Of a stretch of DNA of 30,597 bases, positions 15 through 2,960 are shown one piece after another; the first letter of the stretch is position 1; each line of letters begins with the position of its first letter. The translations under genes were made by a program, and so were the position numbers. The notes under the pieces were generated by a model. That model had not been told where the DNA came from and did not search any database. It worked only from the letters and a program-made list of their open reading frames with translations. The DNA comes from Escherichia phage ESSI2_ev040, in sequence record NC_049393.1; one strand, 5' to 3'.

Positions 15-1718
15 TTAAGCAATGATTTGCTGATACTTCTTCCGGGTCTGATCCGCTTTCTCCGCCGTCTGTGTGAACGCGACGGCATTGGTCGGAGTTC
101 CAACGGTGGGGTGCGAATGGTTCGCGCATTGCTGCGCCAGATCTGCCAGTAAATCAATGGTATCCAGCATCATAGTCAGGGCGTTGATACTCTCACTACC
201 AATATGGACAGTTGGCCCCATGACCTGCTGACCGCCTGCGGCCACTGATTTACGCAGTGCGGCAATCTTCTCTGTCAGGCTTTCGCCTACCTCCACGTCT
301 ACAGCACCGCCCACTTTAGTGGACTGCTGTCCCGCTATGTCCGTTTCTTCGTTTCCTTCAATACTGGCCAGCCTGTTACCTTTCACCGCCTGGCTATAAT
401 CACCGGCGCTTACCTGCTGGATGGCTCCGGCCAGCAGTGTGGCTGTTCCCAGTACAGTGGTTTTATCCGTGGCTTTCACCGTGGTTTCACGGCTGACCAG
501 TTCGCGCTGTTCCGTATCAGCTTTTACGGTTCGCGCCATCGATGTTTCACTGATGGTCTGATCGGTCTGCCTTATCCAGTCTCCAGCCTGAGTCACTCTC
601 TGGGATACTTCTTCCCGCTGCTGTTGCAATTGCTCACCGGGTTTAACGTCCGGCAGGCTGGTGCCATCTGGCAGCGTCTGCCTGATAAAGGGTTTATCCG
701 GTCTGCCTCCCGTGAATGCTACCTCAACCAGCGTCCCTTCTGGAGGAAACTGAAACATACCTGAATCATTCCCGGCCATTGGTACCGGCAGCGGCACCGC
801 TGAGTAAACTGGCGTCTGATTATCCGGGTTTCCGTCTGCGTCAAGCAGCTGCACGTCCACGGCATAACGTGGCCGGAAGGGATCGGCAAAGTTACCGCTT
901 TTTACTGGCTCAGAGTGCGCCACGACTCTGGCCATCTTTGGCAAATGAAGCCCGGATGCCAGTTCCGGGTAATGGCTTTCAATCTGTCGTTGCGCCGGCG
1001 TTTTCTGCAAAGGTTTACCCGTTGCGCGGTTTCTCGGCGTCCATGTGATCGCCATCGTGTCATTCGTCAGGTGAACTTTAGTCACGCGTTCACCGTTCAT
1101 CTCCACCCCTGGCCGCAGAGTCTGGATCACAGGTAATGTCACAGAGTTACCGCCAGCAACCTCCTGGCTGAACTCTGCCGGGATTTCTACGGGGCGACCG
1201 GCAAACAATGATTTTTCTGCGCCGCCGACGTAAAGCGAGCCATCAGGTAACTGGTACCAGATGTAATCCTGGATACTGAACGCCCTGCCCAGATTGTTCA
1301 GTAACTGATAACCAGTACCGTTATGGGTAAAATGTGGGATGGGGGTATCGCTGTACTGTGCGTCAGGCACACTGACCGTGATCCCGCTGTTTTCTTCCAG
1401 CCAGTTCGCAATTTCACGCAAAGTCGGGTGTTGAAACGAACATGGCCACATCCTTTCAAACACACCTGCCAGTTCACGAATGAACAGACGCTGAAAACCG
1501 TTTTCCGCGGGCTGCGATCGCTCCACATACCCCGTAAACCAGCGCAAAAGCAGATCGGTATACCCCACATCCAGCCGCACCAGTTTTCCGGTGTAATCGG
1601 TTGTTGTCTCTGCGGTAATGAAGCCCCGGCCGCAGCTGTTCAGCTCCAGTACCAGGCTGGCATCCACCAAATGAACTTCATCCGTTGAAAGGTAAAGGCG
1701 TTTTACTGGTTTCATCAT
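15..1718 (-). CDS. putative baseplate hub/central spike protein (gp27/gp5- or VgrG-like fusion)
   Basis: 567 aa; internal segment GTLVEVAFTGGRPDKPFIRQ resembles the gp5/VgrG OB-fold signature; C-terminal NHSH motif near the end like spike apex H-x-H motifs; last gene of the coupled tail operon. Confidence 0.5.
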   Translation of the reverse strand: MMKPVKRLYLSTDEVHLVDASLVLELNSCGRGFITAETTTDYTGKLVRLDVGYTDLLLRWFTGYVERSQPAENGFQRLFIRELAGVFERMWPCSFQHPTLREIANWLEENSGITVSVPDAQYSDTPIPHFTHNGTGYQLLNNLGRAFSIQDYIWYQLPDGSLYVGGAEKSLFAGRPVEIPAEFSQEVAGGNSVTLPVIQTLRPGVEMNGERVTKVHLTNDTMAITWTPRNRATGKPLQKTPAQRQIESHYPELASGLHLPKMARVVAHSEPVKSGNFADPFRPRYAVDVQLLDADGNPDNQTPVYSAVPLPVPMAGNDSGMFQFPPEGTLVEVAFTGGRPDKPFIRQTLPDGTSLPDVKPGEQLQQQREEVSQRVTQAGDWIRQTDQTISETSMARTVKADTEQRELVSRETTVKATDKTTVLGTATLLAGAIQQVSAGDYSQAVKGNRLASIEGNEETDIAGQQSTKVGGAVDVEVGESLTEKIAALRKSVAAGGQQVMGPTVHIGSESINALTMMLDTIDLLADLAQQCANHSHPTVGTPTNAVAFTQTAEKADQTRKKYQQIIA

Positions 1719-2263
1719 TAACCCAAAGCATCATTGACGGGCTTCAGCACTTTGCGTTCAAACCACGTCAGTTTTTCTTCATCCTCTCCGGCAGACTGGC
1801 CACCGGACTGTCCCGCACTACCGGCAGTCTGTTTTTTTGCGGTCGTCTTTCCTGTTGCCCTGGCCTCTCGCTTTTCCTGCACGCTGATATGTTCCGCCAG
1901 TGTGAATGTCACCAGCCAGGACATTTTCCCGTCCTGCTGGGGTGCATCCAGCATTCCGCTGAACGTTGCTTCACGAAAATTAACAGCACGGGCAACTTCA
2001 TGCGCCACGCGGTACTTCTGTCGATTACCACTGGCATCGGTAGCACTGGCCAGCTCAAAAATACGCTTCAGTATTTCAGGCTGTTTAAAAGGTATTTCAC
2101 CGCTGATCCGCAGTTCCTTTCCCTTTGCTCCCTGCTCTGATTTTGTTGTGGCGCTGGTCTGGCCGGACTGATCTTTATCCTGAAATTGCTGTGAAACAGT
2201 CACCCGCATGTTTTTCAGCTGGATGGCCTCGCCATTAAGCGCCAGTGTCGGGATCGAAGTCAT
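1718..2263 (-). CDS. hypothetical protein, probably tail-associated (181 aa, charged, low complexity)
   Basis: ATG at 2263 preceded by AAGGGA-like RBS; overlaps neighbours in the late operon; no recognisable motif. Confidence 0.4.
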   Translation of the reverse strand: MTSIPTLALNGEAIQLKNMRVTVSQQFQDKDQSGQTSATTKSEQGAKGKELRISGEIPFKQPEILKRIFELASATDASGNRQKYRVAHEVARAVNFREATFSGMLDAPQQDGKMSWLVTFTLAEHISVQEKREARATGKTTAKKQTAGSAGQSGGQSAGEDEEKLTWFERKVLKPVNDALG

Positions 2264-2960
2264 GAATCATTCCCTTTATTCCATCAAGATTATCGCCAAC
2301 CAGCATCATGGCCGCGGTGTAAACGGCAGACTGCTGCGGAATGTCCTTCACCAGTTTTAGTAACGTGGTGCCGGTGTCTCCGCTGGCAGTAAAAACCCAC
2401 GCTCTGGCACTCTTCCCCTGTAAATCATTCAGGCCGCTGGCCACATCACTGATAAGCTGGTCACGCAGCTGCGTGAACTCGCCCAGCTGTTTTTTTAGCC
2501 CTTCGATATCAAACCCGGCACCCGCCGCCTTTTGTGCCTGGCTGATTGCCGCAGCAGATAAAGCTGCCCTGCTGGTTTGTACAGACAACGGAATGGGCGC
2601 AGGTAACGCAGCAGCGCTTTTCGCAGGGATCTGCATCTTTTCAATAGCCAGCGCTGCGGCGGATTGCGCCAGCCGTTTGACCTGCGCGAATGCCGGAGCG
2701 GGGAAAATCCCGACCAGGTTATTCAGGCTGGCCATAAAGTTTTCCTGCGTCTGTCCGGTGACCATCATAATCACCACGTCCGCATTCCCCCCAGTTCCGG
2801 CCAGGCGTTCAGCAAGATAGCGAACAGCATTAACCGGGCTGAGATATGCCCCGTTCGCTGTCTGCTGTCCCAGCCCATAAATCCACGGATGCGCAGGGAC
2901 GATCGAACAGTTCAGCGCAGCAACTGAATCCGTGAAGGCCAGACGTGCTTCACGCCACAT
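2235..2960 (-). CDS. hypothetical protein (241 aa from ATG 2960; track ORF extends to 2996)
   Basis: GGAGGT RBS 9 nt upstream of ATG at 2960; start overlaps the fibre assembly gene stop; Ala-rich, no motif recognised. Confidence 0.4.
   Translation of the reverse strand: MWREARLAFTDSVAALNCSIVPAHPWIYGLGQQTANGAYLSPVNAVRYLAERLAGTGGNADVVIMMVTGQTQENFMASLNNLVGIFPAPAFAQVKRLAQSAAALAIEKMQIPAKSAAALPAPIPLSVQTSRAALSAAAISQAQKAAGAGFDIEGLKKQLGEFTQLRDQLISDVASGLNDLQGKSARAWVFTASGDTGTTLLKLVKDIPQQSAVYTAAMMLVGDNLDGIKGMIHDFDPDTGA

Follow-up and report, generated by a model that had tools for sequence, protein, structure and literature searches.

The left end of Escherichia phage ESSI2_ev040 (NC_049393.1) carries two open reading frames (ORFs), here called ORF-A and ORF-B, after the gene of the tail fibre assembly protein (Tfa), and the question they raise is whether they are accessory cargo or parts of the tail. 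The whole stretch analysed, 30,597 nucleotides (nts) long, is hereafter the window. A preliminary description of the sequence had placed the two genes in the slot where P2-like phages carry Z/fun-type moron or defence genes, and had named baseplate components of an unusual tail as the alternative. Both ORFs are present as described, on the minus strand between Tfa (2950-3537) and the hub/spike gene (15-1718), and it is the alternative that is supported, by synteny, by the Pfam family PF25759, by a tube fold and by constraint. With a probability of roughly 0.8, ORF-A and ORF-B are inner-baseplate genes of an HP1-type temperate myovirus (Peduoviridae) with a hub-spike fusion, ORF-B being the tube initiator, and neither is cargo. 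They are the third-to-last and second-to-last genes of the late tail operon, and the hub-spike fusion is the last:

2235-2960, minus strand: ORF-A (orf33), 241 amino acids (aa), phrog_1677
1718-2263, minus strand: ORF-B (orf34), 181 aa, Pfam PF25759 and phrog_1398
15-1718, minus strand: hub-spike fusion, homologue of HP1 orf35, 567 aa, phrog_2258 (baseplate protein) with E 1e-276

ORF-B matches PF25759 (Bacteriophage HP1 ORF34 baseplate complex protein) with an E value of 4e-54 and 183.4 bits against a cut-off of 27, and the match covers residues 6-181 of the protein and positions 2-176 of 180 of the profile. All 10 diverse orf34 members scanned matched this family and no other; NCBIfam has no family for ORF-B. 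The earlier statement that neither protein belongs to a recognised structural family therefore holds for ORF-A, for which only phrog_1677 was found, and not for ORF-B. The protein is composed of a tube domain (residues 1-125), a low-complexity linker of G/S/Q/A (about 129-166) and, beyond this flexible linker, a conserved C-terminal helix (167-180, TWFERKVLKPVNDAL). Its description as a charged low-complexity protein of 181 aa was thus right about the length and the linker, but the remainder is a folded domain. The AlphaFold model has a mean predicted local distance difference test (pLDDT) score of 70.9 and a confident fold, with low values at loop 29-45 and linker 129-161. The predicted structure has the Hcp/gpFII-like fold of tail tubes, including the long inner hairpin, and the closest structures are ripcord and tube-initiator proteins: Pa193 gp38 Ripcord-1 (structural match score 10.3), the Milano gp25 centrepiece (9.7), the pyocin R2 ripcord PA0626 (9.2), the Pam3 tube initiator gp17 (8.8), the Bas63 tube initiator (8.7) and Mu DNA circularization protein N (8.1), with many tube and Hcp proteins lower in the list. 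Loop 29-52 (KDQSGQTSSTxKSEQGxKGKEL) is almost invariant across the HP1, K139, Yersinia and enterobacterial members and is disordered in the monomer model, which fits a putative hairpin lining the lumen of a ring. Because of the tube fold and the gene position, ORF-B is most likely the tube initiator, a predicted ring that would join the hub to the tube in the role of P2 gpU. With ripcords among its nearest structures, ORF-B might instead be a second, ripcord-like adaptor of the tube fold, the tube-seeding ring being supplied by another protein or by the N-terminus of the hub fusion; we consider this improbable, and the gene lies directly upstream of the hub gene, as that of gpU does.

In P2, the tube initiator on the gpD trimer consists of six copies of gpU, whose C-terminal helix touches the wedge (bioRxiv 10.64898/2026.09.14.750843). 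ORF-B shares with gpU, and also with PA0626, Pa193 gp38 and Pam3 gp17, the tail-tube fold and a similar small size, and it resembles gpU further in having a C-terminal helix beyond the tube domain, a helix that K139 orf38 lacks. Unlike gpU, ORF-B has the low-complexity linker, and neither by sequence nor by profile was similarity to the P2 protein detectable: hmmscan gave no match to the gpU family PF06995 even at E 10, and comparison by hhalign of 10 aligned orf34 members with 9 aligned gpU members, both alignments being shallow, gave a probability of 0.15; with P2 gpU as a single sequence, too, hhalign gave nothing significant. In addition, the gpU gene of P2 follows the tape measure gene, whereas six genes intervene before ORF-B. 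For ACA1 gp47, an orf34 homologue, a HHpred match to gpU at 15% identity has been reported and flagged as uncertain (Hardies and co-workers, PMC10612066). ORF-B is thus of the tube-fold class and is not filed in the gpU family, and sequence-level homology to gpU could not be demonstrated. As a tube initiator, six copies of ORF-B would form a ring on the trimeric hub, from which the tube would start to polymerise around the tape measure, as it does from gpU, and the C-terminal helix, on its flexible linker, may reach out to the wedges. The RefSeq label "adenine glycosylase" on gp34 of Yersinia phage vB_YenM_324 (7698-8243 of locus L003), another orf34 homologue, looks like a misannotation, since by its sequence gp34 is a PF25759 tube-fold protein; the label merits a recheck.

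Whether the slot is variable or conserved in related prophages had been proposed as a check, and it is conserved: of 168 related loci, which range from Escherichia to Haemophilus and Vibrio, about 165 keep the order Tfa, orf33, orf34, hub/spike. In a first set of 85 loci, consisting of 80 IMG/VR loci (out of 398 with an orf34 relative) and reference phages, orf33, orf34 and the hub gene were contiguous in 82, and the three exceptions were the P2 record, a locus in which only the hub was scored and a truncated one. A second set comprised 83 loci, for the most part IMG/VR contigs related to HP1 and K139, and there the trio was adjacent in every case, an apparent miss in one contig (L153) being an artefact of the ORF start. 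HP1, K139 and vB_YenM_324 have an identical order of tape measure protein, DUF2590, J, I, fibre, Tfa, orf33, orf34 and orf35, and HP1 orf33-35, K139 orf37-39 and gp33-35 of vB_YenM_324 are direct homologues of the three genes and likewise close the tail operon in this order. Identity to these counterparts is 24-42% for ORF-A and 41-67% for ORF-B. Even the two most distant orf33 representatives (24% identity) lie between Tfa and a PF25759 gene, which is followed by a protein of 528-572 aa. Hundreds of homologues of the two genes exist, and the near-universal synteny spans Enterobacterales, Pasteurellaceae and Vibrionaceae. Two IMG/VR loci show apparent internal deletions. One of them (L015) keeps the tape measure gene, orf34 and the hub, has lost DUF2590 through Tfa and gives a fragmentary orf33 match, and the other (L063) is devoid of orf33 and most wedge genes; both are probably decaying prophages or misassemblies.

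The same comparison separates the baseplate genes from the part of the operon that does vary. Identity multiplied by coverage, relative to the window, drops in parallel for DUF2590, J, I, orf33, orf34 and the hub. For fibre and Tfa it ranges from 13 to 99 among otherwise near-identical phages, compared with 74-100 for the baseplate genes (loci L006-L085), which marks the C-terminal part of the fibre, together with Tfa, as the region of the operon where the mosaicism really lies. The ratio of nonsynonymous to synonymous substitution rates (dN/dS) was 0.10 for ORF-A, 0.07 for ORF-B and 0.075-0.093 for the neighbouring baseplate genes, values that are rough because dS is above 1; ORF-A and ORF-B are real genes under purifying selection of the baseplate kind. 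Extra genes in relatives fall between fibre/Tfa and orf33 and never in the place of orf33. ACA1 carries there an antireceptor and a diversity-generating retroelement cassette (gp42-45; PMC10612066 Table S1), and L153 has a 101-aa ORF inserted upstream of orf33 (2950-3255 of that contig). From these two insertions, the variable insertion point of the HP1-type lineage is upstream of orf33 and not orf33/orf34. Within the fibre/Tfa region of the window (2950-5111), there are short near-identical patches to the TfaE gene of Erwinia phage RF1 and to long tail fibre genes of T-even phages.

ORF-A is less readily classified. Its longest ORF spans 2235-2996 (253 aa), but the gene itself begins with the ATG at 2960 and encodes 241 aa. 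This start was chosen because the M-W pair at this ATG is conserved in all aligned homologues, from E. coli to Haemophilus and Vibrio and including HP1, K139 and the Yersinia phage, because nearly all database homologues and the RefSeq counterpart in ESSI2_ev015 have 241 aa, and because GGAGG lies 9 nts 5′ of the ATG. Of the earlier description as an Ala-rich protein of 241-253 aa, the Ala content (17.4% of residues) and the shorter length stand, and the longer one does not. ORF-A matches phrog_1677 (function not assigned) with an E value of 1.2e-75, and neither Pfam nor NCBIfam has a family for it. The following homologues were found by tblastn:

HP1 orf33: 26% identity over 87% of the query, E 9e-10
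HP2 orf33: 26% identity over 88% of the query
K139 orf37, Kappa KP43 and Pasteurella F108: about 29% identity, N-terminal part only
Yersinia vB_YenM_324 gp33 (called "structural protein"): 42% identity, E 7e-41
Salmonella SW3 / SI7: 48% identity, E 1e-50
ESSI-2: 61% identity, E 9e-74

In the alignment with HP1 orf33, which takes in 87% of the length, the MW start and a YLSPxNA motif are kept; K139-type orf33 proteins have an extra N-terminal insertion of about 55 residues. Judged by sequence, ORF-A is the homologue of HP1 orf33 and K139 orf37, a tail-module protein specific to HP1-type tails. The family is small: 1.84 billion representative proteins contain 108 clusters of it at 50% identity, and the diverse orf33 alignment, used as a profile in a protein search, gave no further annotated or fused relatives. 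The AlphaFold 2 model, made with an alignment of 59 diverse members, has a pLDDT of 90.8 and a predicted template modelling score of 0.77, and consists of an alpha/beta core, formed by residues 1-85 and 184-234, and of a long helical hairpin inserted at 89-182. The profile and structure searches that had been proposed as a check, while yielding PF25759 and the tube fold for ORF-B, gave no fold match for ORF-A in the PDB and nothing at E < 0.001 in BFVD by Foldseek. Single-sequence and profile searches of PDB sequences with both proteins found nothing, and the orf33 alignment compared with P2 gpU by hhalign (as single sequence and as 9-member alignment) was not significant. Thus, orf33 is a fixed gene of the HP1-type half of Peduoviridae with a confident predicted structure and no match among solved baseplate proteins.

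ORF-A is probably a minor baseplate component. Its homologue in ACA1, gp46, was detected in purified virions by mass spectrometry (MS), with 2 spectra at 6% coverage (PMC10612066 Table S2), and the spectral count per kDa was 0.09, compared with 0.08 for gpW, 0.06 for gpV and 0.05 for gpJ (PMC10612066). The virion MS of the PV94 paper lists neither orf33 nor orf34 proteins, and in the literature on HP1 orf33/orf34, PF25759, DUF2590 and vB_YenM_324 no functional or structural study was found. The preliminary description had held that detection of both proteins as stoichiometric virion components together with conserved synteny would make them ordinary structural proteins, and this is largely what was found: the synteny is conserved and the orf33 homologue was detected in ACA1 virions, but the orf34 homologue was not detected there. 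The minimal parts of a contractile baseplate are the spike, the hub, the tube initiator, the LysM glue, the sheath initiator and the wedge of two gpJ and one gpI, and in P2 the LysM glue is gpX (bioRxiv 10.64898/2026.09.14.750843). When these parts were matched to the operon, spike and hub were assigned to the 567-aa fusion, the sheath initiator to the DUF2590 protein, the wedge to the gpJ-like and gpI-like proteins and the tube initiator to ORF-B, which leaves the LysM glue without a counterpart and ORF-A as the sole leftover conserved gene. No LysM or gpX protein was found by Pfam among the scanned tail-module ORFs or by tblastn of P2 gpX against the window. A 65-aa ORF (14078-14275, minus strand), unannotated and of about the size of gpX, in the interval separating the genes of the small terminase and the gpL-like head completion protein, was considered as the gpX counterpart and rejected, as it has no LysM or other significant Pfam match; it lies just upstream of the gpL-like gene, whereas P2 gpX lies downstream of gpL.

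ORF-A would accordingly be pictured as a virion protein present in few copies in the inner baseplate. As the phage has no detectable LysM protein, ORF-A may take the "glue" place between the wedges and the hub/initiator, which elsewhere belongs to a LysM protein (P2 gpX or T4 gp53). With these two, ORF-A would share a possible functional analogy only, as a small extra inner-baseplate protein beside an otherwise minimal parts list. It differs from them in having 241 aa, no Pfam match to LysM or Phage_tail_X and a predicted fold unrelated to LysM. That ORF-A is an inner-baseplate subunit with a fold absent from solved contractile injection systems, replacing the LysM glue in HP1-type tails, is a tentative proposal that we hold to be possible rather than likely. 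If it is true, the HP1 lineage builds the hub-wedge junction in a structurally new way, and in any case, solving an HP1-type baseplate would reveal how a minimal contractile tail can do without a recognisable LysM protein.

Several observations weigh against the assignment of ORF-A and ORF-B to the inner baseplate. The virion evidence for the ORF-A family amounts to the 2 spectra only, from a homologue about 16% identical to HP1 orf33, and the ACA1 orf34 homologue is absent from the virion MS detections (PMC10612066). ORF-A diverges faster than its structural neighbours, its identity multiplied by coverage to HP1 being 27% against 39-50% for the other baseplate genes. No solved baseplate protein shares the fold of its model, sequence searches of the PDB found no HP1-type baseplate structure, and its location and "glue" role are inferred only from gene position and the lack of LysM. 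The small number of spectra at low coverage, the fold not found in any solved baseplate component and the faster divergence, together with the place of ORF-A directly after the fibre chaperone gene, are also what would be expected if it were a non-structural or transient assembly factor, a chaperone of the hub-spike trimer or a factor docking fibres to wedges, with ORF-B still the tube initiator. We regard this as a serious rival, although an unlikely one. The ACA1 homologue was found in virions of CsCl-type purification at a level equal to that of genuine baseplate proteins of 3-6 copies, ORF-A tracks J, I and the hub and does not co-vary with the mosaic fibre and Tfa, and where relatives have insertions after the fibre, orf33 remains beside orf34 and orf35.

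Accessory cargo, that is, a moron, defence or lysogenic conversion function of both genes in a hotspot after Tfa like that of P2 Z/fun, has in its favour that this position is a known variable site in P2, that ORF-A carries no annotated function in any database homologue found, and that relatives do carry extra genes after fibre/Tfa. Nevertheless, the ACA1 and L153 insertions are upstream of orf33 and never replace it, and the breadth of the synteny, the purifying selection equal to that of baseplate genes and the tube fold and baseplate Pfam family of ORF-B all speak against cargo. The genes also overlap in their coding sequences, by 11 nts (Tfa/ORF-A), 29 nts (ORF-A/ORF-B) and 1 nt (ORF-B/hub, TAATG), which confirms the earlier observation that both overlap their neighbours and are followed by the hub/spike gene, and indicates a single operon. 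In P2, Z/fun, like tin/old, is located after the fibre assembly gene, as ORF-A and ORF-B are, but Z/fun lies on the opposite strand behind the terminator after G and is non-essential and variable among P2-like phages, whereas ORF-A and ORF-B are co-oriented with the operon, by all appearances co-transcribed, conserved in essentially all loci and constrained like baseplate genes. Promoter- and terminator-like sites in 1-3700 were not above the shuffled expectation, PADLOC defence models gave no match to ORF-A or ORF-B at E <= 0.01, and the G+C content of the two genes (0.53-0.55) is the same as that of the operon. The proposed Z/fun-type slot therefore fails on strand, promoters and terminators, PADLOC, G+C and synteny alike, and we consider cargo extremely improbable. 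Neither ORF is swappable defence cargo; both are ordinary conserved HP1-type tail genes, the slot is without defence or lysogenic conversion cargo, and this lead is closed.

A single defence-like gene was seen in the window, and it is far from this slot. A 284-aa AbiJ-like abortive-infection protein is encoded at 28432-29286 on the plus strand (PADLOC AbiJ, E 3e-16; Pfam Abi_C, E 5e-21), just beyond the integrase gene (27226-28275). The stretch that carries it has a low G+C content (0.41-0.45). Because similarity to ESSI2-type phage records ends at about 28371, this stretch is probably flanking host or island DNA and not prophage.

The neighbouring genes identify the type of the tail. Escherichia phage ESSI2_ev015 (Peduoviridae, genus Quadragintavirus) is 97.7% identical to 1-9200 of the window, and on this similarity the window is a Quadragintavirus-like prophage. 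ORF-A and ORF-B are therefore already known, in the sense that near-identical genes have been deposited and annotated, with the RefSeq labels "putative phage gene" and "hypothetical protein" in ESSI2_ev015, and standard profile libraries suffice to recognise ORF-B, as homology to HP1 orf33 does for ORF-A. For annotation pipelines, membership in PF25759 could be read as "putative tube initiator" and membership in phrog_1677 as "putative baseplate protein". This is an HP1-type and not a P2-type tail, as the sheath protein is DUF2586 and the tube protein Phage_HP1_Orf24, and a lysis cassette is placed between the tube gene and the tail chaperone gene. The tail genes of the two types are only remotely related and the split of the tail modules has been dated very deep (PMC10612066), and P2 gpX, U, D, V, W, J, I and E, used as tblastn queries on the window, gave noise only; for these reasons, the gene map of P2 tells little about this operon. 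Every tail gene at the left end of the window is on the minus strand, and the genes preceding ORF-A are, in order of transcription, as follows:

7209-9176, minus strand: tape measure protein, PhageMin_Tail with E 6e-23, phrog_28; first gene of the overlapping baseplate run
6883-7230, minus strand: DUF2590 protein, homologue of HP1 orf28, PF10761 with E 1e-45; putative gpW/gp25-like sheath initiator
5702-6940, minus strand: gpJ-like wedge protein, Baseplate_J with E 3e-29
5122-5715, minus strand: gpI-like wedge protein, phrog_1228 with E 4e-89 and a weak Tail_P2_I match
3537-5111, minus strand: tail fibre, Phage_tail_fib and Collar domains; conserved N-terminus and mosaic C-terminus (partial coverage in relatives)
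2950-3537, minus strand: Tfa, Caudo_TAP with E 2e-35; mosaic among relatives

The overlapping stops and starts along the tail operon suggest translational coupling. The DUF2590 protein has been assigned as the sheath initiator by HHpred (PMC10612066 Table S1), and the gpJ-like protein probably starts near 6886, as in the RefSeq annotation of ESSI2_ev015. The hub-spike fusion shows weak Phage_base_V, Gp5_C and VgrG matches at residues 309-486; its N-terminal part is gpD-like and its C-terminal part is a gpV/gp5-like OB domain with a beta-helix, in accordance with the fusion of the gpD and gpV homologues in HP1 (PMC10612066 Table S1 note d).

Two further observations concern tail genes upstream of this run. 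The tail assembly chaperone Phage_TAC_10 (9364-9624, minus strand) is followed by a gap of about 190 nts before the tape measure gene (window 9176-9624), which probably holds the frameshifted extension of the chaperone, the equivalent of gpE+E′. The gpS-like tail completion protein (12322-13029, minus strand) has 235 aa and is much longer than P2 gpS, and its Phage_tail_S match is confined to the first 75 residues or so, with a C-terminal extension beyond.

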